Positions 11,719 to 53,616 of a stretch of 64,000 bases of DNA are shown here, one piece after another. Numbering within the stretch: position 1 is the first letter of the stretch; each line of letters begins with the position of its first letter. The position numbers and the translations under genes were made by a program. The notes beneath the pieces were generated by a model that worked only from the letters and a program-made list of their open reading frames with translations, did no database searches and was not told the DNA's origin. The stretch lies in NCBI GenBank assembly GCA_964566135.1, contig CAZMHM010000003.1, positions 15,856-79,855 of the forward strand. The letters run 5' to 3'. The stretch comes from an uncultured Candidatus Saccharibacteria bacterium (GTDB taxonomy: Bacteria; Patescibacteriota; Saccharimonadia; Saccharimonadales; CAIOMD01).

Positions 11719-11753
11719 GCTCTTATTGGTGGCCATTCGCCACCAATAAGAGC
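11719..11753 (+). other. Perfect 15-bp stem / 5-nt loop hairpin 65 nt after the stop of A, with no U-tract
   Basis: GCTCTTATTGGTGGC-cattc-GCCACCAATAAGAGC. An analogous U-less hairpin follows gene C at 53288-53314. Confidence 0.6.
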
Positions 11754-11907: not shown

Positions 11908-11936
11908 AAAGCCGCACAGCAATGTGCGGCTTTTTG
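11908..11936 (+). terminator. Rho-independent terminator
   Basis: aaaGCCGCACA-gcaa-TGTGCGGCttttt: 8-bp GC-rich stem with A/U extension, followed by a T5 run. Confidence 0.75.
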
Positions 11937-11993
11937 TACCTATAAATTTATTCAAATAATCGTTTTTTATTTTTTATCTTTAATGATACTTTT

Positions 11994-12434
11994 ATTACTT
12001 TGCCGAGGCAAAGTAATAGCAAACCGACTGGGCGCAAATCAAAAAGACTCTTATCTGATAGTAATAATCACAAAGCACAAAAAGGACTTCACTCCGTTCG
12101 GCCCCTTCAAATACCAATAGAACTCTGGGGCTAACTTTTTGCCTTAGCTTTGATGATTTAACTCGTCTCTAAATCAGTATTAGATTTGATGCCCAGACTC
12201 ATTAATAACAAGATGTTTCTGCGATTGATGTCGGGCATCAGGGATACCATGGGCAGGATTGCCAAACTTACTAACTTCAAAGCAAAAAGGCTAGTCTAAA
12301 ACTCTACTCAAATATAATGAGTTTTAGACCGACTGCAAGGAGTCCTTTCTGCAGTTGTAAGGCTTGGCAAAAACCTGCACCACGGGATATATGCGCCCGA
12401 GAGTTTTTGTATTACTTTTTGGGTAAAAAGTAAT
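11994..12434 (+). repeat. Structured intergenic repeat family, copy 1 (variant 3' half), bounded by two ATTACTTT..AAAGTAAT hairpins
   Basis: Left hairpin 11994-12017 (ATTACTTTGC-cgag-GCAAAGTAAT). Long imperfect inverted repeat 12028-12196 (CTGGGCGCAAATC...CAAAAAG / CTTTTTG...GATTTGATGCCCAG). Right hairpin 12411-12434 (ATTACTTTTT-gggt-AAAAAGTAAT). The first ~210 nt align with copies at 21514 and 44840. Confidence 0.7.
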
Positions 12435-12704
12435 AAAGAAAGACCTGCTTTTAAATAGCCAGAAACTAATCAGTTTTGGTATGCAGCTTGCTTTAACCCT
12501 GTGGAAAACCTCCATACCCTCAAACCTACTCATTGTAAGTATCTCTACGTTTTGGTTATGTTGTTTTAGTTGTGTTGCGATAGCGCAGTGTGACGATTCT
12601 AGATTGAAGGGAGGTAAAATGTTGTTAATATAACAATATTTTGTGATATTGTTTTGCATGGGTTTGGTGCGTTTATTTGTATACATATATATACATAAAA
12701 CGTC

Positions 12705-12733
12705 TTGAATCGCCTCTGTTAAACAGATAAACT
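12705..12733 (+). promoter_or_regulatory. Putative sigma70-type promoter of giant gene B
   Basis: TTGAAT - 17 nt - TAAACT, ending ~8 nt before the start of the leader that is conserved with gene C. Confidence 0.45.
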
Positions 12734-12740
12734 GAGCTTA

Positions 12741-12965
12741 AGTTTGTCAAAACGAACATTCAAAGAGCAGATAAAGACGTTAAAAACAAAACAAGATTGT
12801 CCGCAGCGAGTTCATCGTCACAAAATTATGTGGCCGTAAACTTGAATAAATCTTGAGCAAAAAATCTTAAAAAAACACAAGAGATTTGCAGTAGCAACAA
12901 ACATGCTCGGCTCGTAAAAATACAAGACAAACCGCAGAAATTAAAACAAAGGTAACAATTCACAC
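12741..12965 (+). promoter_or_regulatory. Conserved ~225-nt 5' leader of giant gene B (paralogous to 45741-45962)
   Basis: AGTTTGTCAAAACGAACATTCAAAGAGCA...GACGTTAAAAACAAAACAAGAT is near-identical in both leaders. The shared blocks ATGCTCGGCTCGTAAA and ACAAGACAAACCGCA..AAAACAAAGG lie just before a GTG start. The leader is A/C-rich with only a weak AAGG ~15 nt upstream. Confidence 0.6.
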
Positions 12966-15900
12966 GTGAGTAGACTGTTCCGCACCAGTCCCATACTTTC
13001 ACGCACCCATAAAACCTCTGATGTAACAGTGGTACGGGTGCTCTTTGTCGTGTTTGCACTTGCGTTGTTTGTTGCAACGTTCGCTATATATCCTTATACG
13101 CGTGACGCAGGTACGCGCACAGCTAAGGCTGCAACTAACTCAACCCTCAACTTCCAAGCTCGTATCCTCACATCTGGTGGAGCAGTTGTATCAGATGGTA
13201 GCTACAACATTCGTTTCAAGATTTACACTGGTGGTACTAGTGGTGGCCCAGGCGGTATTGGTGCCGCTAACGCTGGTACACTACTTTGGACAGAAACCTG
13301 GCAGAACTCTAACAGCCAAGGTATTGTTACTAAGAACGGCTACATCAGTGCAGCCCTTGGTAGCATTACTGCCTTTAGTGGTATTAACTGGGATCAAGAG
13401 CTTTGGGTAACCATGGACGTTGGTGGTACTAGCGTTGGTGCATCACCAACTTACGACGGTGAAATGCTCCAAACCGGCAACAAGCGCATGAAGGTAACCG
13501 GTGTACCATACGCACTGGCTGCTGGCACTTTGCAAACCACCAATGGAGCCGGTACCCTCAGTAGCACCCTTGCTATTAACACTCCAACGGTTGGTAACCA
13601 AACCTTCCAAATCCCTGACCAAGCCGCTGCTGGTACGTACACAATTTGTATTCAGAACGCGACGGGTTGCGGTTTCCTTAAACGAGGAACAGCCGACACT
13701 TCATCGGGTGCAGCTGGTGCTGGTTACCTGTATGGTTTTACCAACTCATCTAGTGCACTCACTGGCGGTGTTCTGCAACTAGATAACGGTACCAACACTG
13801 GTAACACTCTCTATGTCGCATCATCTGGCAACCCAGCAGCCGGTAAAGCACTCATCGTTGCTAACGCCGCTACTGGTGTTACTGGTAACCTCATTGATCT
13901 CCAGCTCAATGCCGTCAGCAAGTTTAGTGTGAACCAGGCAGGTAATGTCATAGCTGCTGGCACAATTACCAGCGGTGCAGTGAACGGGCTAACCCTCACC
14001 AGTGCCGCTGATGGCTTTACCATAGCTGGTGGTACTACCAGCCGAACTTTAACCGTCACTGGCGCCAGCATCACTATTGGTAGCACCATTACGCCAACTG
14101 CAGCAGGAGCACTTAGCGTGACATCCAATGGTGCTAACGCATTAACACTCGATAGCGGCGGTGCTGCAAATGTAAACATCGGTACTGGTGCCGCCTCCAA
14201 AACCATCCAAATTGGCACCACTGCCGTAAACACTGGTAACACCCAAGCTATTGGCATTGGTAACACAGCAGCAGCCGGTACTACCAACGTCACAATTGGT
14301 GCAACCACTGGTGCTACTGGTGGTACCACCACCATCCAATCGCTTGGTACCCTAGCACTCGGTAACAGCATCAGCCCAACCGTTACCTTACAGTCAACTG
14401 TTGGTGGCACCATTAACCTTGGTACTGCAACTACCACCGGCACTATTAGTCTTGGTGGCACAAGTACCAGTGGCACTATTACCCTTGGTCAATCCAGTGG
14501 TGTTAACAACACCATTAACATTGGTGCAAACATAGCTAACACCTTCACCCAAACCATTAACATTGGTACCAGTGCAACAGGTACTACCAACACAACCATT
14601 GGTTCGGCAACTGCTGGTACTACTATCCTCCAAGGCACTACCCGCTTAAGCGCACTGACCACCAACGGTTTTGTTAAAACAACTGGTGCAAACGGAACCC
14701 TCGCAGTCAGCACTACGGTTGCGCTTGGTAGTGAGGTGAGTGGTATCCTTGGCGCAGCTAATGGCGGTACTGGCAATGGCTTTACCGCATTCAGTGGCCC
14801 AACAACAGCGACTAAGACCTTCGCACTACCTGATGTTTCAACAACTATCTGTACTACCAACAGTGTTTGTGCTGGGTACGCACCAAGTGCAACTAATGGC
14901 TATGTACAGTTGGCGCCGGCGTCAATCCAAGCTGATAGCACTACCAATACTAGTATCTTCCTGAATAAAACAGGTGCAAGTGGCAGTCTGCTAGATTTGC
15001 GAAACAACAACACGAGCATATTTTCTCTTGGATATTCGGGTGCCCTTACAGTACTACCAGTTCAGCCAGCGGCTCTTGCCGCTAATGGTACCTCCCAAGG
15101 CACCACGGTTAACTTTAATGGTGGAATAGGTGGCAACACTACTGGTACAACTGGCCAAACTGCGGGTCAGGGTGGCAATCTCTTCTTTAGTGGCGGTAAT
15201 GGTGGTACTGCCGGAGTAGGTTCTACGAATGGTAGGGGTGGTGATATTACACTACAGGGTGGTACTGCTGGTGCTGGAGCAGGTGGCGCAAACTTTAGTG
15301 GTAACGTACTGCTACAACCAAATACTGGCTTTAGTGTTGGCGTAGGTACTCCAACACCCGCTAACCAGTTCTCGGTCAATGCGCTTACGACTGCAGATGC
15401 TAATTATCGCGTTGCAATCTCTACTCGTGCAACAACCGATAAAGGCCTACTAGTTCAAGGAATCCTTAACCAATCTGGTGATTTGTTCCAGGCCCAAACC
15501 AGCACAGGTGCAACCCTCGCATCTATTGGCGCAACTGGCGCAACCGCATTTAAGAACTCGGTCGATTCTAGTAGTGCATTCCAGATTCAGACCGCAGCAG
15601 GTGTTAATGCAGTTAATCTTAATAATACATACGATACCAACAACCTATTTTCTGCTAACCCTAGTTTCGAGGTAAACACCAATGGTTGGGCTGCAGAAGC
15701 AGCGGGCGGCTCTATAGCTCGCACCACGACAGCGGGCCAGTTTTATTATGGTGATGCAGGTGGTGTGGTCACTACAACTACTACGGCTGGTACGGGTGTT
15801 CGCTATAACCTTACCCTTACAGACGCCACTGTATACAACCTGACTATTCCAATAAAAGGAGCAACGGCATTTAGCACACTACAAATTGGTTATGCATCTA

Positions 15901-18900
15901 CTGGCTTGGTTGGTAGCGAGGGCACTGCTGGCCAGAACTGTACTGCCCTAAATGTAACTACAGGCTGGAGCTTTGTAAGCTGTACTATCACGACAACAAC
16001 GCATTCTGGTACGCCGTATATATATATAAAGCAAACCGATGCCGGCACGGCGCGAACATTCTATATTGATGGCGTAATTTTAGCTCCTGCTGCATTTGGC
16101 AATCTTGGATTTACCGAATCGCATCTATCATTACAAGACACCACATTGGCAATAAATACTACTACGGATACACAGGCAGCGTTAACAATTCAACAGCGCA
16201 TCAGCCAGGGTGGCCTATTGCTTAAGGGTAGCGGCGAAGTAAATATCTTCCAGCAACCACTGCTTGATGTGCAGTCTTCGAGCGGTAGCCCGTTACTACG
16301 AGTGTTAGATACTGTCAATACCGTTCGAGCAACTGGTGGTAGTAGCTTGTACCACAGCGCAGCCTTTACGTCAGTATCTGGTTCGGATGGGTTCCAGTCT
16401 TTGAATGTGTACGGTAACTCTGCAACGCAAACAGCAGATTTGCTGCGAGTACAAAAGAACGCAGGTGCAACCACCGGTTTAGTTGTAACTGCAGCTGGCC
16501 GCCTTGGTATTGGTACGCCGGTGGTGAATACCAATGATGTATCGACAGTGAATTATGATTTAGCATTCGGTCAAGGCGCTGATAGAACTATTGGCGTTGA
16601 AACACAATTAACCGCCGCTACTGCAGGAAACAATCTAACAATTAGTTCTGGCCAAGGCAATACAACCGGGGCAGGTGGAAATATAGCACTGCAAGCTGGT
16701 GGCAGCGGTACTGGTGCTACTGGTAATGGTGGTGGAATTACGCTTACCGCAGGTACTGCGTTGTCAACCGATGGTAACGGCGGTGATATAACGCTAGTTG
16801 CTGGTGCCAAATCCGGCACGGGTACAGGCGGAAAGATAGTGGTTAAACCTGGCACACTTGGCAATCGCATCGACTTCTTCCAATTCCAAAACCAAGGTGG
16901 GTTCCAAGTCGCAAACGTTGACACCCAAAACAACATCTTCAATTTCGGACAGGGTAGTCTCATAGACGGTAAAATTCGCTTCTACAATGCTAGCAGTGGC
17001 AACTTTGTAACAATGGATGCATCAACTGCAGCAGCAAGCTATGTACTACGTCTACCAACTACAGCTGGTGCTGCATCAGATTGTCTTAAGAACTCTGGTA
17101 CTGCTGGTGTGCTTACATTTGGTAGTTGTGCAGCAGCAAGCTCGTTGCAATCTGCATACGATGCTGATGTTGATGGTTCGGACACGGTTATTGCATTAAC
17201 AGCCGCTGACGACTCGCTTATTCTACGTAACCCTGCAGCCGGTGGCACTGATAGTACATATATATTAACGCTCGATCAATTAGCAACAACAGCAAAAGGT
17301 GGTTTAAGCGTACAAAGTGCTGGTACTGGCAACTTGTTGCTTGTTACAGACACTACTGCAACCGCACGTGATGTCCTAACTATTGCAGATGGCGGTGCTA
17401 CTACATTCAGAAATCAAACTAATACTGGGGCGGCATTCCAGGTGCAAAACGCTGCAGGCAGTAGCATTATCAATGTTGGAAGTTCCACTCCACAATTTAC
17501 CCTAAGTGATGGGGCGGTCGCAGGCGCTGGTAATTTAGTACTTACAACTAACGTTGCAAGTGGCGAAGATGCAGGAGATGTAATATTTAACAACAATGCC
17601 GGTACCCAAAAGGCTCGCATATGGTCATCTAGTGCAGCGGGAGTGAGCGGTCTATTCCTAAGCTCTGGTGATCTTACTGCAGATATTTCAATCGACAATT
17701 CGGGTAACACAACCATTGCATCAAACCTCACAGCGAATGGATCATCTCTCTTCAAGAATGGGGCCGATTCTACGACCGCCTTCCAAATCCAAAATGCAGC
17801 CGGCGCAAACATACTCAATGTAAATACCACTGCTGGTAACCTTCTTATTAACGGTGTAGTGCCAGCTACCTTTACGGGTAGTGTCGCTACAAGCCTTACG
17901 CCATTCGCAATCGAAAAAGTTGGCGACTTAATCTATGTAGTAGGTGCAGCTAACAACTTACAAATATTTGACGCTTCTAACCCCGCCTTAGTAACCCTTA
18001 AGACAACATTTGCCGTAACAGGTGCAAGTGCGCTTGAATCAGTTGTTGTACGTGGCAATTATGCATACATCTCGGACTTTACGGCCACTAAGTTCTTTAT
18101 TGTTGACATATCAAACACAAATGCGCCTGTACTTGTAAAAACTGTGACAACTGCCAGCAGTATTGTTGATCTTAATGTTTATGGTAACTATGCATATTTG
18201 TTTACCAACGCAAATACCATTGTTATATACGACATCACAAACCCAAATAACCCTGTTCTTAAAAGCACCACCGCCACTAGCATTACTACCTTTAGTGGTG
18301 CCAGCGGTATCGTGGTAAAGGGGAGCTACTTATATATATCAGGTACTAATGGCACTAATGGAAAGCTATACATATACGACATTAGCAATCCAAGCTTACC
18401 TGTGCTTAAGAATGGCGCTGGTGCCACAACCAACTCAACCTCTCCAGCCGGTATGAGTGTCGTTGGTAGCTATGCGTACATATATAACCGTACACTTACT
18501 GCATCACTTGAAATCTTTGACATATCTAATGCCACAACTACCGCTGCGCATGTTGGTACAGTAAATCTTACCGCAGGTGGCACAATTGCTGGCTGGGGTC
18601 CGTCTTCGGTGTCGGTACAAGGTAATAGAGCGTATGTAACTAATAACTCGGCAAACAGGCTCGAAATTATTGATATTTCGGCTGTTACAGCGCCTACAAT
18701 CAGCGGTTCCGTTTCTACAGATACTCGCCCGGCGGGAGTTAAAGTAGACGGTTTGTATGCCTATGTACTTACCTACACGAGTGCCACAATTAAGACTTAT
18801 AACATTGGTGGTGCATATGCTCAGACTCTCGAAGCCGGTAATCTCAACGTGACTGATTTGCAAGTAGGCAACAGCGCTACCTTTAATGCTAACGCCAGTA

Positions 18901-21506
18901 TCTTTGGAAGCTTAAATGTTGGTCAAAACCTGCAAGTCAATGAAGATTTGGGCGTGGCTGGCAATGCAAAGTTTCAGAATACTGCCAATAATACTAATGC
19001 GTTCAAGATACAAAATACAGCAGGCGCTAATCTGATTAATGTAGACACAATATCAAATAATAATAATCTAATCACTAACCCAAGCGCAGAAGTTGATACT
19101 TCTGGCTGGAATACAAATGCGCCGCGAACAGGCACTGCAATATCACGAACAACAACGGCAGCAAACGTGTATTACGGTGTTGGTGCAATTGATGCAAACG
19201 TAACAACTGGTTCTGTAAATTCTGGCGTAAACTATCCAATAACACTTACAGCGGGTGTTGCGTATAACGCTACTGTCATGATGAAGCTAACGACTAATGG
19301 TAACGTAACGTTTGGTTATGCGCATAACGGTACAGAAGGCACGTACCAAAACAATGCATGTTATGGTGGCAACGCTGGTACGGGATGGTATATTTGTAGC
19401 CTTACATTTACGCCAGCTACGGTTAGCGGCTCGCCGTACTTCTTTATCAAGCAAAACGATTCTGTGGTCCGTCATATCTACATTGATGGTTTATTTATCG
19501 CCCCTGTAGCGGGCTGGACGGGTGGCTATCAAGAAGGTCAAATAAATCTTGGTAATTCGGCCACTCCAGTTTATGTTGGTGGTTCACCCTCAAATCCAAT
19601 TGTAAATGGGATTGGTACTCTTTTTGTTCAGCAGGTACGCGATAAAGCAGGATTGCAGGTTCGTGGCACTCCAGAAAATGATTTGCTTAGACAGCCTATT
19701 TTAAACGTAGAAACAAGCGGACAATTCTCGCTCTTGAATGTCAACGAAGCACAGGCAGTAACGCAAATTCAGGGTGGTTCGGCATTTTGGGGTAGCGCCG
19801 CCTTAAGGGTCTTGAGTAATGATGCTGGTGCAACGGCACTACGAGTTATGGCTGCGCCGAGCCAAACAGGCAATGTATTTGAGGTAACGGACAATAGTGG
19901 CACTGATATGTTTACAGTAGGTTCCGCTGGCAGTACTCTTGTTAAGACATTAACTAATTCAACAACAGCTTTCCAAGTACAGAATTTGGGAGGTACCGCT
20001 GCCTTAACGGTTGATACTACCACTAATGACACTACTCTAAGTGGAGATCTAAGCATTGGTTCGGGGGGTACGCTCGGCCAAGTTATATTTAATAACGGAA
20101 CAGCCAACCTGCTCAGTTATCCAAACGTTGGTGTAGCTGCGCCTACATTCACAACTAGAAGTGCTGGCACTAAGATATTGCTCTATAACGGTTTAACCGG
20201 CAGCGCTACCGATTATGCAATTGGTATTGCAAATAACACGCTCTGGAATAGTGTACCAGCCTCTACGAATCAATTTGCCTGGTACGTAGGCACCACTGCG
20301 GTCGCAACACTAAATGGGTCCGGATGGTTTAATGTTGCTGGCACGGGTACTGCAAACGATGCACCGCTCCATATTCAAAATAGTGGAAACGCATGGACTA
20401 CTGCAACTTGGAAAAAATCTATTCGACTTGATGGTGGTGCGAACGCCATTGAATTTAGTGCAGGTACGGCAAATCCGACTGGTATTGGTGGAACTACAAA
20501 CGGTGTTTATATCTGGGAAGCTGCCGGTGAAACGGGTGCTTCTGGGCTTACCTATGTCATGCGCGCATCGTCTTCATTAGGGTTTTCTGCATATATTGCT
20601 AACGGAGCCGGTGCTACTGCGGTTTGTGCCTCTTCTACTGTAGCAGGTAACAGAACCTTCACTGCAGCTGCAACCGTATGTACTAACCCATCATCAATAC
20701 GACTAAAAGAAAACGTAACTGATATGTCTGATGCGCTAAATATTTTGGGCCAACTACGACCAGTTGCGTTTAACTGGAAGGCAAGCACTGGAATAACTGC
20801 AATTAATGGCGGCTCAGCCGATTATGGTTTCATTGCAGAAGAAGTAAATAATGTTATACCAGAACTAGTCTCTCGTGATGAAAATGGCCAAATACAAGGA
20901 CTCAACTATTCTGGCTTTGTGCCATTCCTAGCTCGTGCTATTCAGCAACAACAAGCAGAAATCACTGCGCTACAAGGTAACGCAGCCGGCATTACTGGTG
21001 GCGGTACTGTAAACGGTAATTTGGCAATCACTGGCAGTCTAAATGTCACCGGCCCAACAACGTTGGATGGCGGGCTAACCGTAAATGGCAATGCAGTCTT
21101 TAACGGAAACCTTACTGTGCAAAACATCCAAGTCGCTAATATCACTATCAATGGGCACATTATTACCGCTGGTAACGCACCAACCGCTGCAGTTGAAACT
21201 GCTGCTGGCATAGCTGATACCCAAAACAATATTGCTGCTCCAGTGGTAACAATAGATGGTAATGATACCGCTGGATCCATTACAATTGTTGCCGGTGCAA
21301 GTACTACAGCGGGTGACATGGCCAACGTGACTTTTACTACTACATTCGGTAAAGCGCCTCGCATTATCTTAACCCCAGTAGGTTCAGACAGCGCTAAGCT
21401 ACAAACCTACGTAAATGGTACCAGTGCTGCTGGCTTTAAACTTGGTACAAATGTTGCACCAGCCGCTGGCACAACGTACACGTATAACTACCAGATAATG
21501 CAATAA
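12966..21506 (+). CDS. Giant cell-surface fibre protein, paralog B (2,846 aa) with a phage-type S74 domain near the C-terminus
   Basis: GTG start conserved with gene C (MSRLFRTSP..). TM/signal-anchor VLFVVFALALFVATFAIY, then NSTLNFQARIL...WTETW...VTGVPYALAAG, an N-terminal domain shared with C and E. Also two GGxGG blocks, two CBM-like modules (15650-16090, 19070-19510), an LVIVD region, S74, and the shared C-terminal module. Confidence 0.93.
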   Translation: MSRLFRTSPILSRTHKTSDVTVVRVLFVVFALALFVATFAIYPYTRDAGTRTAKAATNSTLNFQARILTSGGAVVSDGSYNIRFKIYTGGTSGGPGGIGAANAGTLLWTETWQNSNSQGIVTKNGYISAALGSITAFSGINWDQELWVTMDVGGTSVGASPTYDGEMLQTGNKRMKVTGVPYALAAGTLQTTNGAGTLSSTLAINTPTVGNQTFQIPDQAAAGTYTICIQNATGCGFLKRGTADTSSGAAGAGYLYGFTNSSSALTGGVLQLDNGTNTGNTLYVASSGNPAAGKALIVANAATGVTGNLIDLQLNAVSKFSVNQAGNVIAAGTITSGAVNGLTLTSAADGFTIAGGTTSRTLTVTGASITIGSTITPTAAGALSVTSNGANALTLDSGGAANVNIGTGAASKTIQIGTTAVNTGNTQAIGIGNTAAAGTTNVTIGATTGATGGTTTIQSLGTLALGNSISPTVTLQSTVGGTINLGTATTTGTISLGGTSTSGTITLGQSSGVNNTINIGANIANTFTQTINIGTSATGTTNTTIGSATAGTTILQGTTRLSALTTNGFVKTTGANGTLAVSTTVALGSEVSGILGAANGGTGNGFTAFSGPTTATKTFALPDVSTTICTTNSVCAGYAPSATNGYVQLAPASIQADSTTNTSIFLNKTGASGSLLDLRNNNTSIFSLGYSGALTVLPVQPAALAANGTSQGTTVNFNGGIGGNTTGTTGQTAGQGGNLFFSGGNGGTAGVGSTNGRGGDITLQGGTAGAGAGGANFSGNVLLQPNTGFSVGVGTPTPANQFSVNALTTADANYRVAISTRATTDKGLLVQGILNQSGDLFQAQTSTGATLASIGATGATAFKNSVDSSSAFQIQTAAGVNAVNLNNTYDTNNLFSANPSFEVNTNGWAAEAAGGSIARTTTAGQFYYGDAGGVVTTTTTAGTGVRYNLTLTDATVYNLTIPIKGATAFSTLQIGYASTGLVGSEGTAGQNCTALNVTTGWSFVSCTITTTTHSGTPYIYIKQTDAGTARTFYIDGVILAPAAFGNLGFTESHLSLQDTTLAINTTTDTQAALTIQQRISQGGLLLKGSGEVNIFQQPLLDVQSSSGSPLLRVLDTVNTVRATGGSSLYHSAAFTSVSGSDGFQSLNVYGNSATQTADLLRVQKNAGATTGLVVTAAGRLGIGTPVVNTNDVSTVNYDLAFGQGADRTIGVETQLTAATAGNNLTISSGQGNTTGAGGNIALQAGGSGTGATGNGGGITLTAGTALSTDGNGGDITLVAGAKSGTGTGGKIVVKPGTLGNRIDFFQFQNQGGFQVANVDTQNNIFNFGQGSLIDGKIRFYNASSGNFVTMDASTAAASYVLRLPTTAGAASDCLKNSGTAGVLTFGSCAAASSLQSAYDADVDGSDTVIALTAADDSLILRNPAAGGTDSTYILTLDQLATTAKGGLSVQSAGTGNLLLVTDTTATARDVLTIADGGATTFRNQTNTGAAFQVQNAAGSSIINVGSSTPQFTLSDGAVAGAGNLVLTTNVASGEDAGDVIFNNNAGTQKARIWSSSAAGVSGLFLSSGDLTADISIDNSGNTTIASNLTANGSSLFKNGADSTTAFQIQNAAGANILNVNTTAGNLLINGVVPATFTGSVATSLTPFAIEKVGDLIYVVGAANNLQIFDASNPALVTLKTTFAVTGASALESVVVRGNYAYISDFTATKFFIVDISNTNAPVLVKTVTTASSIVDLNVYGNYAYLFTNANTIVIYDITNPNNPVLKSTTATSITTFSGASGIVVKGSYLYISGTNGTNGKLYIYDISNPSLPVLKNGAGATTNSTSPAGMSVVGSYAYIYNRTLTASLEIFDISNATTTAAHVGTVNLTAGGTIAGWGPSSVSVQGNRAYVTNNSANRLEIIDISAVTAPTISGSVSTDTRPAGVKVDGLYAYVLTYTSATIKTYNIGGAYAQTLEAGNLNVTDLQVGNSATFNANASIFGSLNVGQNLQVNEDLGVAGNAKFQNTANNTNAFKIQNTAGANLINVDTISNNNNLITNPSAEVDTSGWNTNAPRTGTAISRTTTAANVYYGVGAIDANVTTGSVNSGVNYPITLTAGVAYNATVMMKLTTNGNVTFGYAHNGTEGTYQNNACYGGNAGTGWYICSLTFTPATVSGSPYFFIKQNDSVVRHIYIDGLFIAPVAGWTGGYQEGQINLGNSATPVYVGGSPSNPIVNGIGTLFVQQVRDKAGLQVRGTPENDLLRQPILNVETSGQFSLLNVNEAQAVTQIQGGSAFWGSAALRVLSNDAGATALRVMAAPSQTGNVFEVTDNSGTDMFTVGSAGSTLVKTLTNSTTAFQVQNLGGTAALTVDTTTNDTTLSGDLSIGSGGTLGQVIFNNGTANLLSYPNVGVAAPTFTTRSAGTKILLYNGLTGSATDYAIGIANNTLWNSVPASTNQFAWYVGTTAVATLNGSGWFNVAGTGTANDAPLHIQNSGNAWTTATWKKSIRLDGGANAIEFSAGTANPTGIGGTTNGVYIWEAAGETGASGLTYVMRASSSLGFSAYIANGAGATAVCASSTVAGNRTFTAAATVCTNPSSIRLKENVTDMSDALNILGQLRPVAFNWKASTGITAINGGSADYGFIAEEVNNVIPELVSRDENGQIQGLNYSGFVPFLARAIQQQQAEITALQGNAAGITGGGTVNGNLAITGSLNVTGPTTLDGGLTVNGNAVFNGNLTVQNIQVANITINGHIITAGNAPTAAVETAAGIADTQNNIAAPVVTIDGNDTAGSITIVAGASTTAGDMANVTFTTTFGKAPRIILTPVGSDSAKLQTYVNGTSAAGFKLGTNVAPAAGTTYTYNYQIMQ
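17900..18830 (+). other. LVIVD-type beta-propeller region of paralog B (approximate bounds)
   Basis: NYAYISDFTATKFFIVDISNTNAPVLV, NYAYLFTNANTIVIYDITNPNNPVLKS, SYAYIYNRTLTASLEIFDISNATT, RAYVTNNSANRLEIIDISAVTAPTISG, ending YNIGGAYAQT exactly as A ends YNIGGAYIQA. Confidence 0.55.
20688..20975 (+). other. Peptidase S74-type intramolecular chaperone / autoprocessing domain (tailspike-endosialidase type) inside B
   Basis: PSSIRLKENVTDMSDALNILGQLRPVAFNWK...ADYGFIAEEVNNVIPELVSRDENGQIQGLNYSGFVPFLARAIQQQQAEITALQ. The Ser-x4-Lys dyad spacing (S-S-I-R-L-K), the GxIA[QE]EV..xxPxxV block and the terminal helical segment match the family pattern known from phage tail spikes and fibres. Confidence 0.75.
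20970..21503 (+). other. C-terminal module of B, homologous to 11124-11651 of A, lying downstream of the S74 domain
   Basis: Colinear alignment with the C-terminus of A (see feature 11124-11651). Confidence 0.7.
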
Positions 21507-21513
21507 CCTTGTT

Positions 21514-21964
21514 ATTACTTTTGCTGACAAAAGTAATGCAAAATCACTGGGCGCAAATCAAAAAGACTCTTAGCTGATAGTAATAATCACAAAGCGCAAA
21601 AAGAACTCGCTATGCTCGGCTTCGCCAAATTCTAGCGGAAGGCTCAGCTGGCTTTTTGCCTTGGCTTTGATGATTCTTACATCATCTAAATCAGTATTTG
21701 ATTTGATGCCCAGACCCTAAGAATAAAATATACCGTGATTAACGGGGTCCGGGGCATCGGCTTGCTATAGGGTAGATTTACGTCATAAGTAGCAGAGTAA
21801 TTACCGAGGACTCGTCCCAACGCTTCTTGGATATGTTTCGTTGGGACCGACCGTAGGGAGTTCCGCAGGTACTGCTAGTTATATGTAAAGATACACCTGC
21901 TAGCAAACGCAACCCCGGCAGTTTACCCAACTTTGCTGTCCAAAGTTGGAAAAGTGCGTTTGCT
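21514..21964 (+). repeat. Structured intergenic repeat family, copy 2 (candidate structured ncRNA or non-autonomous mobile element)
   Basis: Hairpin 21514-21537 (ATTACTTTTG-ctga-CAAAAGTAAT) starts 8 nt after the stop of B. Long inverted repeat 21547-21713. A multi-helix 3' module runs to ~21964, with stems GTCCCAACG/CGTTGGGAC, CCAACTTTG/CAAAGTTGG, AGCAAACGCA/TGCGTTTGCT and CCGGGG/CCCCGG. About 450 nt align with copy 3. Confidence 0.7.
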
Positions 21965-40647: not shown

Positions 40648-40671
40648 AGTAATCAAGGGTGGTGATACGTG

Positions 40672-40935
40672 ATGAAAGTGGCGGTTCTTTACCGTAGTCA
40701 ATCAGAGCAAGAGCGTTCAGTGCTCGACTTTGAGCGCGACTATAGTCGGCAAACGGGCCGCCAACTTTCGCTATTTGACCTTAATACTCGTGAAGGCGCA
40801 ACGCTTGCAACTCTTTATGATGTTGTCCAATACCCGGCAGTACTTGCTATGGGCAACGACGGGCAATTATTGCAAATGTGGCAGGGCGAAAACTTGCCGC
40901 TCATGAACGAAGTCATGTACTACGACCGCGATTAG
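40672..40935 (+). CDS. Small thioredoxin-fold-like protein lacking the CxxC motif
   Basis: 87 aa from ATG 40672 (GGTGGTGA RBS 6 nt upstream). KVAVLYRSQSEQERSVLDF...YDVVQYPAVLAMGNDGQLL resembles a Trx/Grx beta-alpha-beta layout with cis-Pro (YP), but SQSE replaces CxxC. Confidence 0.65.
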   Translation: MKVAVLYRSQSEQERSVLDFERDYSRQTGRQLSLFDLNTREGATLATLYDVVQYPAVLAMGNDGQLLQMWQGENLPLMNEVMYYDRD

Positions 40936-40970
40936 TTGTTTTTTACAAATAACAGGGGTATAGTAGTAAT

Positions 40971-41163
40971 ACAATTTAGCGAGATACATTTTGCTTAGTG
41001 CAAATAAGTGACTATCAATCACGAAGTATTGCGAAGAACGGGCATATCCCTACTAGAACGCAACGTTATGCAGCTCACGTTAGAGCAATAAATAAGTGAC
41101 CAATACCACTGGTAAGTCGGATGGTACCTCCCATTATGGGATCCGACAACGCCGGTGGTTTTT
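40971..41163 (+). promoter_or_regulatory. T-box-like leader upstream of ileS (candidate tRNA-Ile-sensing riboswitch, non-canonical)
   Basis: GUCGGA-UGGUACC-UCCCA-uua-UGGGA-UCCGAC (41116-41147) reproduces the antiterminator architecture: helix A1, 7-nt UGGNACC bulge, helix A2. An AUC-A triplet sits in a small loop at 41014-41017, and a U5-tailed hairpin lies directly before the ileS RBS. A possible promoter TTGTTT-17-TATAGT sits at 40936-40964. Stem I elements could not be identified by eye. Confidence 0.4.
41106..41163 (+). terminator. Intrinsic terminator/attenuator in the ileS leader
   Basis: CCACTGG..GTCGGAT...ATCCGAC..CCGGTGG followed by TTTTT (41159-41163), 20 nt before the ileS ATG. 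Confidence 0.7.
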
Positions 41164-41182
41164 ATATTAAAGAAAGGCAACC

Positions 41183-44572: not shown

Positions 44573-44578
44573 GGCTGT

Positions 44579-44787
44579 GGAAAATGAGTACATATTTTGT
44601 GCAAAAACTATTGCATTAGTTTGCCAAATAGAACATACTAAAAGTACAAAAATAAACACAAGAGGTACGTGCAAAAAGGGTATGAAGAACTAGAAAGCCT
44701 TCTCATCGTAAGCTATTAGATCTCGCAGGCTAAGAGCTTACAAATACTCGCACTACCAGGAAAGCGCCCCCAACCGGGCGCTTTTTT
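44579..44787 (+). ncRNA. Candidate ~210-nt small RNA (promoter-to-terminator unit with no credible ORF)
   Basis: Bounded by the promoter-like site above and the terminator at 44761-44787. It contains the internal hairpin GTAAGCTaTTAG-atctcgcagg-CTAAgAGCTTAC (44719-44752). The only ORF is 16 codons and its SD is too close to the start. Confidence 0.3.
44761..44787 (+). terminator. Rho-independent terminator
   Basis: aaaGCGCCC-ccaacc-GGGCGCtttttt. Confidence 0.7.
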
Positions 44788-44839
44788 ATTACTCACTTCT
44801 TAGAATCATCTCTGCAATGCTGCAAATAATACTTCCTTT

Positions 44840-45290
44840 ATTACTTTTGGCAGCAAAAGTAATGCCAAACTGCTGGGCGCAAATCAAAAGACTCTTATCT
44901 GATAGTAATAATCAAAAAGCGCAAAAAGAACTCGCTACGCTCGGCTTCGCCTAATTTTATAGGAAGGCTCGGCTGACTTTTTGCCTTGGCCTTGTAATTA
45001 GTTACATCATCTAAATCAGCATTTGATTTGATGCCCAGACACATTAATTACAAGTTCTATGTGATTATTGGGGCCCGGGGCATCGGCTTGCTACAAGGTG
45101 TGATATAGCAAAAAGTAAGGAGTAACTACCGAGGACCAGTCCCAACACTTCCAAATAAGTATTGTAGGGGCCGACCAAAGGGGGTTCCGCAGGTACCGAA
45201 GCTTTTAGGTATAGCGCACATCTGCTAGTAAACACAGCCCCGGCAGGTTTACCCAACTTTGCTGCCCAAAGTTGGAAGAGTGCTTTAAGA
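44840..45290 (+). repeat. Structured intergenic repeat family, copy 3
   Basis: Hairpin 44840-44863 (ATTACTTTTG-gcag-CAAAAGTAAT). Long inverted repeat 44873-45038. The 3' module is colinear with copy 2 and conserves its stems (GTCCCAACA/TGTAGGGGC with a U-A to U-G change; CCAACTTTG/CAAAGTTGG; CCGGGGC/GCCCCGG). Confidence 0.7.
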
Positions 45291-45705
45291 AAGCACGTAA
45301 GCTAACAAGTTTGGGAAATAGGCGTATGTCATTTAGCTAGAAAAAGTGCGGTTCTATTATTCATAGTGCGCAAGGTCAACACTGAATAACTACGATATTG
45401 GTAATATTTGTACCCAACAAAAGCACAATTTATGGCTATATTTTATGCTAAATTTTGTTGTAAAAATGCGGTTTAAAAGCACTGAAAATAACTTACTACT
45501 GCTAACTATAAGGCACTATTTGCTGTGGAAAACTTACTCATGAAAAAATCAATCGTTATATAAAATACATCAAAAAAATTTTGAGAATTTTTAAAATGGG
45601 AACTACTATAACACCAGTAGTGATATTAAATTCACAACAATAATTATGCTGCAAAAATCGAAAAATCTACAGATTTACACCTCAGTATTTTAGTTAGATA
45701 GACTA

Positions 45706-45736
45706 TTGTAATAACAGTGGTTACAAGAGATACTAA
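45706..45736 (+). promoter_or_regulatory. Putative promoter of giant gene C
   Basis: TTGTAA - 19 nt - TACTAA, ending ~6 nt before the conserved leader. The spacer begins TAACAGTGGT, related to the TAACAGGGGT motif. The long spacer lowers confidence. Confidence 0.4.
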
Positions 45737-45740
45737 GGCT

Positions 45741-45962
45741 AGTTTGTCAAAACGAACATTCAAAGAGCAAACAAAGACGTTAAAAACAAAACAAGATCGT
45801 CCGCAGCAGGTTCATCGTCATGTCCGCAACTGGCTATAAACTTGACTAGGTCTTGAACAAACAAATCGCACAAACAAAATGCGAATTGAAATAACAACAA
45901 AAATGCTCGGCTCGTAAACAACAAGACAAACCGCACAAACTAAAACAAAGGCACAATTCGCA
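45741..45962 (+). promoter_or_regulatory. Conserved ~222-nt 5' leader of giant gene C (paralogous to 12741-12965)
   Basis: The first ~85 nt are near-identical to the B leader. It shares the blocks ATGCTCGGCTCGTAAA and ACAAGACAAACCGCA..AAAACAAAGG and the same GTG start context (GTGAGTAGACTGTTCCGCACCAGTCC). Confidence 0.6.
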
Positions 45963-48900
45963 GTGAGTAGACTGTTCCGCACCAGTCCTGTTCTTCATTG
46001 CACCCACGGTACCACTAAAAAGACAGTGGTAAGGGTGCTTTTTGTCGTGCTAAGCCTTAGTTTGTTAGCTACAAGTATTATTCCTATACGCGGGGGTGAG
46101 CGTGCACATGCAGCAAGCAATAACACCCTGAACTTCCAAGCTCGCATCCTCCAGACTAACGGTGCAGTTGTGCCCGATGGTAGCTACAACGTTCGGTTTA
46201 AGATTTACTCTGGTGGTACCAGTGGTGGCCCAGGCGGCATTGGTGCTGCGAACGCTGGTAGCTTGCTGTGGACTGAAACATGGCAGAACTCCAATAGCCA
46301 AGGTATTGATACCAAGAACGGCTACATTAGTGCAGCCCTTGGTAGCATTACGGCGTTCAGTGGCATTAACTGGGATCAAGAACTTTGGATAACCATGGAT
46401 ATCGGTGGCACGAGTGCTGGCGCCAGCCCAACTTACGATGGCGAAATGTTACAAACCGGCAACAAGCGCATGAAGGTTACTGGCGTACCGTATGCAATTG
46501 CTGCCGGCAGGCTTCAAACAACCGATGCAGCGGGTACAAACACAAGTTCGCTTTCGATTGCTGCACCTACTGGCGGTAGCCAAGTATTCCAACTTCAGGA
46601 TCAAACCGCTGCAGGCACATACAACCTTGCGTTGCTTAATGGCAATGGCACGCAGACATTCACGGGATTGAACACATTTAGTGCAGCAGGTACCGCATTG
46701 ACGGTAACGAACAATGCAAGCATCGGCGGCACGCTAGGCGTCACCGGCTTAACGACAGCAACAGGTGGTTTAACGACTGGCACTGGCAGTACGCTGACCG
46801 TTGGTGGTGCAACACTCAACAACACGTTAGCGATTGGTAACCTCAATTACACCGGTACTGGCAATACGGGTTCGATTGGTTCTGCTGCAAGTACGGTAGA
46901 CATCTATACCAACATAACGATTGCACAGACAACTGCTGGCCAAACGCTAACAATTCCTGCACCAACAACTTCAACATCTGGCCGTGTTATTTATATAACC
47001 AACATTGGTAGTGCTGGCTATACTATGGCAGGTGCGGTTGTTAGTCCGGGCGTAACAATGCAGTTCGTTTGGAACAATACTACTTCGAGTTGGTCACTTG
47101 TTACGAGTGGTGTGAGTGGTAGCTATATCCAAAACGGTACTGCCGTACAGACTGCTAACTTTAATATTCAAAGCAATAGTACGACAGATGTTTCGGCTAT
47201 CGTACAAGGTGCAAATAGTCAAAGTGCCGACATTCTACAAGTTAAAGCGGCAAGCATTAGCAGCCCACTATTTAGCGTAAGTGCAACGGGTAATACGACT
47301 GTTCAGCCGAGTGTTGATAGTTCCACTGCATTTGTTGTTAAGAACGCCGCAGGCAGCACAAGCTTGTTCGTTGCCGATACCTCTACGGGAACGGTTTCTG
47401 TCAACGGTAAGTTCATAACAAGTGGTGGTCAAGTTAATATTAACAGTGCCGGTGCAGGGAACACATACATTGGTAACACCGGCTATGCAACTCAACTTAC
47501 TGGTGGGGTTACTTTAACGACTAGTGGATCGGCTAACTTTATAGATATCACCGACGGCACCAACAACTATTTCAGGTTTAATGGCACAAATAGCTCAGTA
47601 TCTGTTGGCAACAGTGCTGTCGCAACATCGGCAACAAATATTAATGCTGGCTCCACGGGCCTCATTAATCTAAACCAGTCAACCACCATTAGTGGTGATC
47701 TTACATTTGTAGTAGGTGCGACAAGAACCATTAGTGTTGCAAACCAAACTGTAAATAACACTGCAGGTAATGGGCTAGTAGTTCGATCTGCTGCTGGTCT
47801 CGGTTCTGGCAGCGGTGGTCAACTAAACGTAGTCGCTGGTGATGGTGGTGCGACTGGCGCAGGTGGCGCAGTCTTTGTTACCGCAGGTAGTAGCGGTTCA
47901 TCTGGCACTGCAGCTGGTGGTCAGCTCAATTTGGCCGGTGGCGCAAGCTTTAATGGTACTGGCGCAGGTGGCGCAGTTAATATTGTTGGCGGCGGCAATT
48001 CTACGACTGGTAGCGGCGGCAATATCAATATCACAGGCGGTGGTACTGATACTGGTGCTGGCGGAAGTGTGTATCTTGACCCAGGACAAGCAGGCAGTGC
48101 ATTTAATCCCGGTAACATATATATAGGAACAATGTCTGGTGGTGGCACTATTAATATAGGAAACACGTCAGACAGTATGGGCGTGAACATTCTGAACGCC
48201 GGTACTCTAAATATAGGCACAGGCAATGTCGGGTCAACCGTCAACCTTGGGACAGGCAATGGTCTAAAGGCAGTTACTATTGGCTCGACAAATACCACTA
48301 GTGGCACAACTATTCTTGCCGGTAGCGGTAACATTAATCTTAATGCTGCAACGATCGCCACTAATCAAACGAGCATCAACCTTCTTAATACCACTGCAAC
48401 AACCGTAAATGCTTTTGGTGCTGCAACTGCCTTAAATATTGGCGCTGGTAGTGGTACAACAACAATCAATAATGGTTTAACTGTATCTGGCGCAACGCTA
48501 CTAAATGGCAACAGCACCATCGGTAACGCCAGTACTGATCGCTTAACTGTAACCAGCCAAATCCTTGGCGGCTCACCACTGGTATTCCAGGGCGCTACCG
48601 ACGATGGCTTTACAACTACCTTTGATGTAACTGATCCAACAGCAAACAATACTATTATATTCCCGAACGCATCTGGCACTGTATTGCTTGCCGCTACAGG
48701 TTCAGGAAATGCGATAGTCCAAGTGCCCACAGCGGCAGGCGTTAACGTTATCACCCCAACCGCAGCAAGCGTTATTGGTCTTACGGTTAACGGTACAATT
48801 GGTACTGCTGCAACTGCACTTGCTATAAGCCAACCGGGTGCGGCAGCAGGCGTTACTATTGCTAGCGCTAACAATACCGCAACAAACGGCCTCAGCTTTA

Positions 48901-51900
48901 GCGGGACGTTTACTAACCTTATTAATGCAACAAACTTCAGCGTTACCAATGCCGGCGCGATTACAGCGGCAAGCACCTATAACACTAATACCTTTACTGG
49001 TTCAGCACTTACATTTGGATCAGCGGCAACGGCAACGGTACAAAGTGCTGCATCTCAGGCTTTAAATATAACCGGTCACGCCAACAGTGTATTTTCAACA
49101 GACGCTGGTACGCTTACGCTACAGGGTGTTACGGGCACTACATTAACCACTGCCGCAGGGGGTACCTCTACGAATGTAACCATAAAGAGTGGTGATGCTT
49201 CTGCTGGCGTATCGGGTAATGTTGAAATAGATACTGGTACCCATACAAGTGGCTCGCCATCTGTTAAGATTGGCACAAACGCGCAGACGTCAGCAGTGTT
49301 CGTTGGTAACACGACTGGGACAAATACAACCACAATTAACGGTGGGGTTAATGGAACGACGCCTACCATTTCTTTGCAAGCTGCAACTAGCGGTTATATT
49401 GCAGTGGGTACGGCGAATGCTAATACAATTCAGATTGGTGCAGTTGGTGCGTCAGCGTTTACAAGTACTGTGACAATAGGTACTAGCACTGGCGCTGCAC
49501 AAAATGTAACCATAGGCTCCAATGCTAACTTTAATAGTGCAACAATCATACAAGGTGGTAACAGTAATACGGCTGGTAGTGAGGCAATCCGATTAGTACC
49601 ACAGACTACCGGTGGTATCGCAATCGGTGCCACAGCAGGCACGGGCACTATCACACTTGGCCAGTCAACGGCGTCCAATACGATAGCAATTGGTAATGCA
49701 GTTGGTGCAGGTAATACGCAAACTATTGGTATCGGTACTAGCACAACAGGGACAACAGCTCTAACAGTTGGCTCTAATACCACTACGAGCACCATTAGTC
49801 TACAGTCTGGCAACATCACGCTTGGAAATACTACTAATCGCGGTACGGTCACCAATAATGGCGGTACGTTTATGGCGACCCTTACTGTTAATGACGACAG
49901 TAATGGTGGTGCACTTGGTGGCACGCCTGCGGGTGGCCTTACCGCTGCGCAATCAGTAGACAGCTACACATCAATTGGTATCAATCAAACCACGGCTGGT
50001 CAGGCCATTACGCTACCGAACTCTGCTTCAACAATCGGTCGCGTGCTATATGTCACCAACACAGGTACGACTAGCTTTACTATCAACGGCACCACGTTTA
50101 CTACCGGTTCAACAGCAACAATGTTCTGGACGGGTAGCGCTTGGACATTTGCAGGTATGGATGGCGGCAGCAGCAACTACATCCAAAACCAGACTGCTAC
50201 GGATCAAGCGGCAAGCTTCAAGATTAGCGGTACTGCAACTATCAAGACAACCAATGCAAATGCCTTCCAGGTACAAAGCGCTTCAGGAACCGATACTATG
50301 CTTAATATCGATACCACTACTGGCAATGCAATAAAGGTCGGCAACAATACTGGCACCGGAACCGCAACGACTATATTCGTACTTGATAGCGCTACGACTT
50401 CGGCGGGCTTACCTACGACAGTTGGTGCAATGTACTACGATACAACAGCCGGCCGTATTCAATGTTACGAGGGTACTAGTTGGGGCAACTGTGGCAACAC
50501 AACACTGCAAGAGGCATATGATAGTAGCTCAAACGGGGCCACTACTCCAGAAATTAAGGTAACAAGTACCAATAGCCATAACGGACTAGATGTACAAGAT
50601 GCTGACACGACGCTTGGTGCTACTGCTGGCTTGTTTAACGTACGCGCATCATCAGTAGGCGCTCTCGGTGCGTCACTCTTTACGGTACAGGGCAACGGCC
50701 GTGTTGGTATCAATAATGGCTCAACTAGTACTACCCCAGCCGTAAGTTATGACTTAAGCTTTGGCCAAATCGCAGGCGCAACTACGGCTCGCACAATTGG
50801 TGTCGAGACCCAAGCAACAGCAGCAACAGGCGGTAACGGCTTAACGGTTAGCGCTGGTACTGGTAACACAACTGGCGTTGGTGGTACATTATCACTCCAG
50901 GGTGGTAACGGCGGTAACGCAGCCGCCGGCGGGGCAGTATTCTTAACCGGTGGCGCAGCCGGCGGTGGTAATACTAACGGTGGTAGCGTTACTATTGCCG
51001 GTGGTGCCGCAGCCGGTAGCGGTGTACAGGGAGTCGTTAATTTATCAACTACAGCATTCACCGCAGCCGGCACAGTATCATTTGCAGCGAACAACACACT
51101 CAATACACTCCTCACTAATGCAACGAACTTATATAGCACGGTGCCTGTTAACGCGACCGCATCCGGCCTTACGCTTACTGTAGACTTACCAACAATCACT
51201 ACTGTTGGCCGTATCTTATATATTACTGCCGTCAATGGTTCTAACGACTTTGCGCTCTTACTCGCCGGCACATCAGTCAACATTTCGATGAAAGCAAACA
51301 GCACCGCTACTCTTATATATAACGGTACCGGTTGGACGGCTGCCGGTGCATCAAGCTCAACAACCTTACAAGCTGCGTACGACAACACCCTTATCAGTGC
51401 CGGTGGTGCCGAACTACTACTTAACAACAGTACTGCCGGTGGTGATGGTCTTACTATTCGCAACAATACTGGCGTAAAGACCATCACAGGTGCGCTATTA
51501 GAAGTCCAAACTAACGTTGGTAGCAATCTCTTTAGTGTTAACAATAACGCTACAGAATATGCAAATAACGGTGGCGCCGAAAGTGCAACCTTTACGATGT
51601 GGCCAACCGCACCTAATGGTGGCACAACAGCTACTGTCACGCGTGATACTACAACGTTCGCAACCGGTATTGCATCAACAAAGGTGGTAACAACCGGTAC
51701 GGCTACAGCTAACCAGGGTGTTGCCAATACACTTTCCGCAACACTTAGTGCTAACTTACAGTACGCGGTATCGTTTACGGTAAAGAGTGGCACAGCAAAC
51801 AGCTTTAGTACCCTCGATGTAGTTTATTCACGCGATGGCACAAATGCTTCTACGGTTAGCTGTACTACAGGTCGAACCGTTACCGCATCAGCATGGACAC

Positions 51901-53287: not shown

Positions 53288-53314
53288 CTTTCGGCGGTTT
53301 ATCGCCGCCGAAAG
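53288..53314 (+). other. 10-bp GC-rich stem-loop 72 nt after the stop of C, with no U-tract
   Basis: CTTTCGGCGG-tttatcg-CCGCCGAAAG. Its position parallels the hairpin after gene A. Confidence 0.55.
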
Positions 53315-53566
53315 TCTAGGTAAGTCGCACAAAAAATGTGTGCAGATGACCCCTTATCGCAAGTGGTTATCTTGGCTCGTAGTACATAAAACGAGCCGCC
53401 TAGAAAGTCAGAATTTATACGTTACCGGAAGTGCGGACCAAGGCGACGAAAAAGTAAATTCTGGCCCAAAACCAAAAACAAAAATTCATCACTGGCCAAC
53501 CCCAGTAAAAAACAAAACCAACACAAAAACCTGCTTCACCAAAATCGTGCAGCACACAAAAAATAG

Positions 53567-53616
53567 ATACCCCGTGTAAGACGACTTAGCATTTTGTCGC
53601 AACGGGGTATTTTTTA
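53567..53616 (+). terminator. Rho-independent terminator (A-run upstream, T-run downstream; possibly bidirectional)
   Basis: ATACCCCGT..CGAC-ttagcatttt-GTCG..ACGGGGTAT followed by TTTTT. It is preceded by a ~110-nt C/A-rich tract. Confidence 0.7.

Follow-up and report, generated by a model that had tools for sequence, protein, structure and literature searches.

Two giant genes in a 64,000-nucleotide (nt) stretch of a Saccharibacteria (TM7) genome (contig CAZMHM010000003.1; the whole stretch is called the window here) share a leader of ~225 nt, and this leader appears to be a structured cis-acting mRNA element, with a fold supported by compensatory substitutions on the sense strand. The genes, B (12966-21506, forward strand, 2,846 amino acids) and C (45963-53216, forward strand, 2,417 amino acids), are "NFQARIL" paralogues whose predicted products look like giant secreted or N-terminally anchored surface fibres. 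The explanation that we favor, at a probability of roughly 55%, is a combined one in which the structured leader would stabilize the messages, take part in the selection of a GUG start codon with a poor Shine-Dalgarno (SD) sequence, and offer a docking site to a trans-acting factor. A conserved leader common to B and C had been proposed in an earlier description of the window (the original prediction), and in a BLASTN alignment of 225 columns (E = 4e-55), 12741-12964 and 45741-45962 are 81.8% identical. The near-identical 5' block, then put at ~85 nt, is seen as 94% identity over the first 80 nt of the two leaders, and the strings quoted at that time (AGTTTGTCAAAACGAACATTCAAAGAGCA, ATGCTCGGCTCGTAAA, ACAAGACAAACCGCA, AAAACAAAGG, and GTGAGTAGACTGTTCCGCACCAGTCC) are all present. 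The 23-mer GTTTGTCAAAACGAACATTCAAA occurs in the window only at the two leader sites, with up to three mismatches allowed and a chance expectation of 0.01. Conservation begins sharply, at 12741 and 45741 in a BLASTN comparison of the upstream regions, and, as had been proposed, the leaders are A/C-rich and G-poor, with 45-46% A and 16% G compared with 32% A and 21% G in the other intergenic DNA of the window.

The likeness of the two leaders exceeds that of the neutral positions in the genes they precede. Over the first 240 codons of B and C the 4-fold degenerate sites are 57% identical, which is near saturation, whereas identity rises to 81% in the structured leader domain and to 100% in its first 28 nt. 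The first 25 coding nt are likewise 100% identical, in line with the identical GTG start context reported before. Leader identities of 81-100% against 57% at 4-fold sites indicate selection rather than a relic of duplication. A protein-guided scan of species-representative genomes gave 26 family loci, the closest three of which (L001-L003, paralogues in one related metagenome-assembled genome (MAG)) have this leader too, with an unchanged distance to the GTG. Scanning metagenomes with a 20-mer from the 5' block added two true copies (L031 and L027) and three chance matches, bringing the total to seven copies in four assemblies, at a constant distance from the same start codon. Every related locus found in public genomes belongs to a Saccharibacteria MAG. 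Absence of any related leader from other family members would have counted against the original prediction, but five further paralogues (L001, L002, L003, L027, and L031) carry it. In the 21 pairs that the seven copies form, identity is 39-64% at 4-fold sites, 96-100% in the 5' block, and 84-100% in the first 25 coding nt. The closest pairs cross species (for example, B with L001, and L003 with L031), indicating that the paralogues split before the species and that the leader has long been retained in several lineages. The 4-fold-site comparison, the further copies, and the compensatory changes described below thus support the original view of a functional 5' untranslated region (UTR). The leader of gene A, a third giant gene, lies ~565 nt before the window start and outside the seven-copy comparison, and a protein search for closer relatives returned only fragments of at most 57% identity.

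Folded one by one, the seven leaders adopt the same architecture. In leader B a domain of ~190 nt (12741-12932, forward strand) is closed by helix P1, in which nt 2-8 (GUUUGUC, 12742-12748) pair with a GACAAAC located ~185 nt downstream (12926-12932). P1 is followed by the invariant, unpaired 16-nt segment J1, AAAACGAACAUUCAAA (12749-12764), and by P2 (GAGC/GCUC, 12765-12768 with 12905-12908). P3 (12792-12798 with 12849-12855) encloses P4 (12807-12844), a 14-bp interrupted hairpin, from which it is separated by the invariant, unpaired J3/4, GUCCGCAG (12799-12806), and P5 (12858-12888) is a variable hairpin. The domain of leader C (45741-45931, forward strand) is closed in the same way by P1 (45742-45748 with 45925-45931), with P2-P5 inside. 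On a plain MAFFT alignment the RNAalifold consensus recovers P1, P4, and a hairpin formed by codons 3-9. In this alignment P4 has five compensatory pairs and a covariation score matched in none of 500 shuffles, and pairing reaches 97% compared with 21-47% in slid controls. A second count was made with P2, P3, and P5 aligned by structure in N-padded rows, and here 96% of 303 cells pair (25-42% in slid controls) and 21 of 45 pairs are compensatory (seven of seven in P3, eight of eight in P5, five in P4, and one in P2), counts that are inflated by the fitting; none of 500 shuffles reaches any of these measures. Fifteen cells are G-U pairs that would be A-C mismatches on the opposite strand, which favors the mRNA strand as the one that folds. 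P1 is supported by the invariance of both of its strands, by pair probabilities of 0.69-0.95 in the seven copies, and by two natural indels, which respect the boundaries of helices and domains. In L002, P5 is lost and P3 is lengthened to 12 bp, and P2 has changed from GAGC/GCUC to GCGC/GCGC. In L027 (~6303-6145, reverse strand) an insertion of ~160 nt directly follows the 3' strand of P1, GACAAACC, so that the domain and the ribosome-loading tail are separated, with both intact.

The leader is predicted to be transcribed, as a 5' UTR running from the transcription start to the start codon, on the basis of weak TTG-N17-nAnAnT hexamers. For gene B the promoter-like site spans 12705-12733 (forward strand), with a -35 element TTGAAT (12705-12710), a 17-nt spacer, a -10 element TAAACT (12728-12733), and a predicted start at about 12740/12741. 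For gene C it spans 45706-45734 (forward strand), with TTGTAA (45706-45711), the same spacer length, GATACT (45729-45734), and a predicted start at about 45741. All seven copies have TTG-N17-nAnAnT 6-8 nt upstream of the invariant AGTTTGTCAAAACGAACATTCAAA, and upstream of the invariant AGTTTGTC the multi-species alignments are almost devoid of conservation, their invariant columns being confined to the TTG and to A2, A4, and T6 of the -10-like hexamer. This hexamer is TAAACT, GATACT, GAAAAT, or CACAAT among the copies and is followed by 6-8 nt to the A of AGTTTG. The promoters had been described as not conserved, which holds in that they cannot be aligned by BLAST but not for the TTG, the 17-nt spacer, and A2/A4/T6, which are in register in every copy. 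These in-register positions are the main evidence for a transcription start near 12741 and 45741. Given that start, pairing begins at nt 2 of the predicted transcript, where GUUUG/CGAAC is an alternative local pairing.

In leader B the structured domain is separated from the start codon by an A/C-rich, mostly unpaired tail of ~33 nt (12933-12965, forward strand), which contains ACCGCA and a weak AAAGG. It is followed by the GTG (12966-12968) and, in codons 3-9, by the start-proximal hairpin GACUG-UUCCGCAC-CAGUC (12973-12990). Tail, start, and hairpin of C occupy 45932-45987 (forward strand), with the GTG at 45963-45965 and the hairpin at 45970-45987. The last 40 nt of leader B have base fractions of 0.53 A, 0.23 C, and 0.12 G, and the mean unpaired probability from -30 to +3 is 0.70 in B and 0.51-0.74 across the seven copies. 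The original prediction had noted almost no SD sequence, in agreement with best SD/anti-SD pairing energies of -3.9 (B) and -3.4 (C) kcal/mol. The AAAGG used for this pairing ends 13 nt (B) or 11 nt (C) before the GTG, and a weak AAGG is located 11-13 nt upstream of the start in six of the seven copies. The accompanying claim that housekeeping genes mostly have clear SD sites stands for S1, IF2, FtsZ, RNR, and orf182, which are the best provided (-8.3 to -9.3 kcal/mol), but is slightly too broad, as only about half of the other genes have a clearly strong site. The GTG is assigned as the start because it is invariant in all seven copies, because the 21-codon N-terminal extension it opens keeps a constant length and no stop despite many amino acid changes, and because L002 has an in-frame stop two codons upstream of it. 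The inner pairs of the start-proximal hairpin have pair probabilities of 0.8-1.0, and the hairpin survives non-synonymous changes, namely S to G in L002, where a U-A pair becomes U-G, and F to S in the loop of L001. Synonymous sites in codons 3-8 are almost invariant, indicating a constraint at the level of RNA.

A short element recurs in the unpaired parts of the leader. UCCGCA is invariant and unpaired between P3 and P4, CCGCA is found in the P4 loop of five of the seven copies (leader C among them), and ACCGCA is located just 3' of P1 in four of the seven. The loop of the codon 3-9 hairpin is UUCCGCAC, or UCCCGCAC in L001, so that all seven copies are covered. Each leader has YCCGCA three or four times, distributed over junctions and loops, one of them the loop adjacent to the start. 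In the more distant family members L004, L007, L014, and L016, CCGCA lies within -7 to +14 of the start codon in different reading frames, an occurrence that is suggestive only.

The particular RNA of B and C is confined to a narrow clade. When the 23 more distant family loci were searched with BLASTN (word size 7) and with an nhmmer profile of the seven leaders, neither method found a homologous leader. In most of these loci (L004-L026) the last 100 nt before the start are ~50% A and ~10% G and lack an SD sequence, a likeness that is analogous and not homologous, and A-rich runs such as CAAAAACAAAAAATAACTAAAACAAAA are typical of them. Inspection by eye showed stems at the predicted 5' ends of L006, L010, and L011 (AGUUAUU...AAUAACU) and of L021, L024, and L025 (AGAUCUG...CAGAUCU). 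In several distant subfamilies with such stems a promoter of the TTGCACCTCTGTT type precedes them, again by eye. A family-wide design, with a paired 5' end followed by hairpins and then an open, A/C-rich, SD-poor region, appears to emerge from these sequences.

In the combined explanation favored here, pairing at the predicted 5' end would shield messages of 7-11 kb from 5'-end-dependent decay. The open, G-poor region between the domain and the downstream hairpin would let the 30S subunit choose the GUG with little help from an SD sequence. AAAACGAACAUUCAAA and the YCCGCA elements would form the docking site of a trans-acting factor that co-regulates the paralogues. Several points weigh against this explanation. 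High abundance of the giant proteins is an assumption, and 5'-end-dependent RNases or an S1-type SD-independent pathway are presupposed for this organism. An invariant unpaired stretch of 16 nt exceeds what a stabilizer needs, which points to a specific partner. The comparison rests on seven sequences from about four lineages, P1, being invariant, has no covariation support, and the P3 and P5 columns of the structure-guided alignment were fitted to the structure by hand. The folding energy of the leaders does not go beyond that of shuffled sequence (z = -1.14 and +0.35), so that thermodynamic stability is not evidence for the fold. The predicted start depends on weak hexamers, since a strict sigma-70 consensus scan calls neither the B nor the C promoter and the -10 boxes match at four of six positions; the prediction therefore relies on positional conservation. 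An additional promoter may also lie further upstream of the leader, where a DNA motif, CTGTGGAWAA, is located 217-241 nt before the predicted start in the seven leader-bearing loci.

A different emphasis is possible, although we consider it doubtful, in which the domain would act as a sensor, whether as a riboswitch-like aptamer or as the platform of a dedicated RNA-binding protein, and would gate translation initiation of the giant adhesin-like paralogues according to a signal, with stabilization being secondary. The multi-helix junction closed by P1 fits such a role, and the nucleotides conserved in its junctions (J1 and the UCCGCA of J3/4) are of the kind expected of a riboswitch. The recurrence of single-stranded YCCGCA, including the copy in the codon 3-9 hairpin loop, and the CCGCA near distant start codons fit it as well; repeated loop motifs of this kind are reminiscent of CsrA-type targets. 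However, scans and folds of the seven leaders found no U-tract terminator, no conserved alternative helix, and no helix that sequesters the SD sequence, leaving no expression platform, and the ribosome-loading region is predicted to be open in all seven. A hairpin that could hide the GUG (CAGU/ACUG) was considered and rejected, since B and L002 do not conserve it. The RNA also has a very narrow phylogenetic range, and there is no candidate ligand or protein. Searches of Rfam 15 gave no match at the gathering threshold in the whole window, only noise for 12400-13050 at E <= 10 (14-21 bits compared with thresholds of 43-90), and no credible match for the two upstream regions at E <= 5-10. A scan for tRNA and tmRNA found none in the window, and pairing of the nearby small RNA-like unit E2 with the leader was no better than that of shuffled E2.

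A related proposal brings in the upstream DNA motif CTGTGGAAAA, found at 12499-12508 (forward strand, 241 nt before +1 of leader B) and at 45523-45532 (forward strand, 217 nt before +1 of leader C). Its general form, (C/T)CTGTGGA(T/A)AA, gives the DnaA-box-type consensus TTWTCCACA when reverse-complemented. The window holds three copies of CTGTGGAWAA, the third at 44575-44584, compared with 0.23 expected. The window and the related loci together (258 kb) contain 33 forward and 4 reverse copies, nearly all of them 100-450 nt upstream of giant-gene starts, and 22 of the 26 genome loci have one. Judged by its sequence and position, the motif could be a site for DnaA or another regulator, or a part of an upstream promoter. 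The leader might constitute a new class of signal-responsive RNA, binding a ligand or a dedicated protein, that coordinately switches translation of the giant adhesin-like paralogues in these episymbiotic bacteria and perhaps acts in concert with the motif, a proposal that we regard as unlikely. If it were true, CTGTGGAWAA, as a phylum-wide motif of fixed orientation, could tie surface-fiber expression to the cell or replication cycle. Other strings occur in the same upstream DNA. A perfect palindrome, TTGTTA-ATA-TAACAA, is located at 12622-12636, and the -35 box of gene B follows ~70 nt downstream of it. Strings of the form (T/A)ACAAC(A/G), such as TTACAACAATAT, recur between CTGTGGAWAA and the promoter in related loci, with similar ones in some distant loci. 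Either the palindrome or the TTACAACAATAT-like strings may be an operator.

The exceptional length of the genes also raises the idea of a processivity or anti-termination signal of the ops, put, or EAR type, through which a NusG-family protein would be loaded or RNA polymerase modified for transcription of 7-11 kb. Such signals are usually promoter-proximal and untranslated, as is the leader, and its tail, rich in A and C but poor in G, looks like a loading site for Rho that would have to be counteracted. Yet the leader resembles no anti-termination RNA in Rfam, no NusG paralogue or Rho gene was seen within the window, and the equally large gene D (2,142 amino acids) does without the leader and has an ordinary SD sequence, which makes this idea quite unlikely. 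Very unlikely, too, is that the first 28 nt act as DNA, as an operator or a site in the initially transcribed region that a DNA-binding regulator recognizes, with the remainder of the leader drifting. The first 24-28 nt are indeed invariant whether paired or not, and other conserved DNA motifs (CTGTGGAWAA and TTGTTA-N3-TAACAA) lie upstream. The block is not palindromic, however, and an operator would account for neither the compensatory changes found in P2-P5 nor the G-U pairs, and would leave unexplained why the distant GACAAAC is invariant and why synonymous sites in codons 3-8 are constrained.

That the 5' block encodes a leader peptide is highly improbable. Open reading frames (ORFs) of 31 codons in B (12744-12839) and 40 codons in C (45717-45839) do span the block and have a common end. 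Their frame, on the other hand, is not preserved among the copies: a 1-nt indel (TTCAAAGAGC compared with TTCAAAAGAGC) shifts it in L002, L027, and L031, and L001, L003, and L027 stop after ~10 codons, so that ORF lengths range from 10 to ~50 codons. Translation would have to begin at a TTG (+4) that lies within P1 and lacks an SD sequence, and B and C differ at four codons, three of them non-synonymously; an upstream ORF was rejected on the grounds of its frame. A functionless duplication relic or recent gene-conversion tract, suggested by the paralogy of B and C and the similarity of their coding 5' ends, is barely credible and is ruled out by the 4-fold-site comparison, with the same blocks being invariant in four assemblies. 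A MITE (miniature inverted-repeat transposable element) or other small mobile repeat was also rejected, as there are only two copies in the window, both at the same offset from paralogous starts, and the homology runs into coding sequence.

The window contains four very long ORFs, A-D. ORF A ends at 11654 and starts before the window, ORF D spans 53695-60123, and the lengths of 2,417, 2,846, and more than 3,803 amino acids are exceptional. B and C are 75% identical over the N-terminal ~230 amino acids, a common N terminus that includes a basic extension of 21 residues, a hydrophobic segment, and the NFQARIL motif. Their bodies contain LVIVD repeats, a tailspike-type Peptidase_S74 chaperone domain, or a CBM_4_9 domain. 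Gene D has a different N terminus. Housekeeping genes for S1, a short IF2, PriA, FtsA, FtsZ, class II RNR, IleRS, and L21 occupy 22-44.5 kb of the window. The 535-nt intergenic region upstream of the isoleucyl-tRNA synthetase gene (40648-41182), which is the usual place of a T-box or other leader, has no Rfam match at the gathering threshold.

Other conserved elements accompany the giant genes. A conserved unit of ~215 nt with ~75% identity lies downstream of rplU, a position confirmed for the window and L031, and begins exactly at CTGTGGAWAA. It is located at 44575-44790 (forward strand) in the window, 2656-2866 in L001, 2405-2613 in L003, 6072-6291 in L031, and 7383-7159 (reverse strand) in L027. 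The unit has a promoter-like TTGCAT-N17-CATACT, invariant TACAAAAATAAACACAAGAGGT and TTAGATCTCGCAGGCTAAG, and an intrinsic terminator, in which a compensatory change is seen; it contains no conserved ORF, has no Rfam match, and by its sequence looks like a small RNA gene. A repeat element, R, flanks the giant genes A, B, and C at 11982-12212 (partial), 21512-21960, and 44825-45286, with 77-81% identity among these copies. Its 3' half is kept in the related MAG, inverted relative to the giant gene (L001 2885-3135 and L003 2730-2985, opposite strand). Element R folds as a long rod with compensatory changes in 17 of 66 pairs in four sequences, contains GUUCCGCAGGUACC, and has no Rfam match. GC-rich hairpins that lack a U-tract follow the stop codons of A (hairpin at 11719-11753) and C (~53289-53317) at a distance of ~65-70 nt, with the sequences cttattggtggc...gccaccaataag and tctttcggcgg...ccgccgaaag. 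They are followed by A/C-rich 3' UTRs and then by true terminators (~11908-11937 and ~53570-53616).

Saccharibacteria and other Patescibacteria have an attached lifestyle on host bacteria, a contact for which large surface proteins are probably needed. To our knowledge, gene regulation and regulatory RNAs are almost undescribed in these groups, and literature searches found no description of these leaders. The leader is a candidate new RNA family for Rfam and offers a case for how very long mRNAs are stabilized and translated without a normal ribosome-binding site. Together with the promoter-like site, the SD-poor region, and the GUG, it provides a handle for expression studies and genetic tools. 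The narrow distribution limits the reach of the finding, for which the comparative support is good.

Compared with known systems, the leader resembles riboswitches that precede adhesin genes, such as c-di-GMP-I/II (GEMM), in being a conserved multi-helix RNA whose junction is invariant and which lies before a large surface-protein gene, but differs from them in having no Rfam match or expression platform. The sap genes of Campylobacter fetus, an antigenic-variation cassette system, likewise form a set of surface-protein paralogues with a common 5' UTR and N terminus and divergent bodies. In contrast to sap, each paralogue here has its own promoter-like site, no invertible promoter segment was seen at these loci, and the saturated synonymous sites argue against recent recombination. 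With SD-independent A-rich leaders, in which little local structure at the start codon is said to allow initiation without an SD sequence, it shares an open, A/C-rich, G-poor sequence and weak SD pairing (-3.4 to -3.9 kcal/mol), a trait also shared by the distant family members. It differs in that other genes of this genome use GGAG-type SD sequences, and the weak AAGG may still contribute. The slpA 5' UTRs of Lactobacillus acidophilus and L. crispatus likewise place a long leader with a 5'-end fold before a surface-protein gene, with inferred stabilization and high output, and the long structured 5' UTRs of S-layer mRNAs are associated with half-lives of 14-15 min (PMC3666127). There is no homology in sequence or structure to slpA, whose genes have strong SD sequences, whereas the leader described here combines a vestigial SD sequence with a GUG start and long invariant unpaired motifs. 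The 5' UTR of Escherichia coli ompA, also an envelope-protein mRNA, is paired within 1-2 nt of its 5' end, as is predicted here, through a local 5' hairpin in place of the long-range helix that closes a 190-nt domain. The 5'-terminal stem-loop of ompA reportedly shields the message against RNase E. By analogy, the leader of B and C may work as the surface-protein mRNA leaders of slpA and ompA do, while being non-homologous to either.

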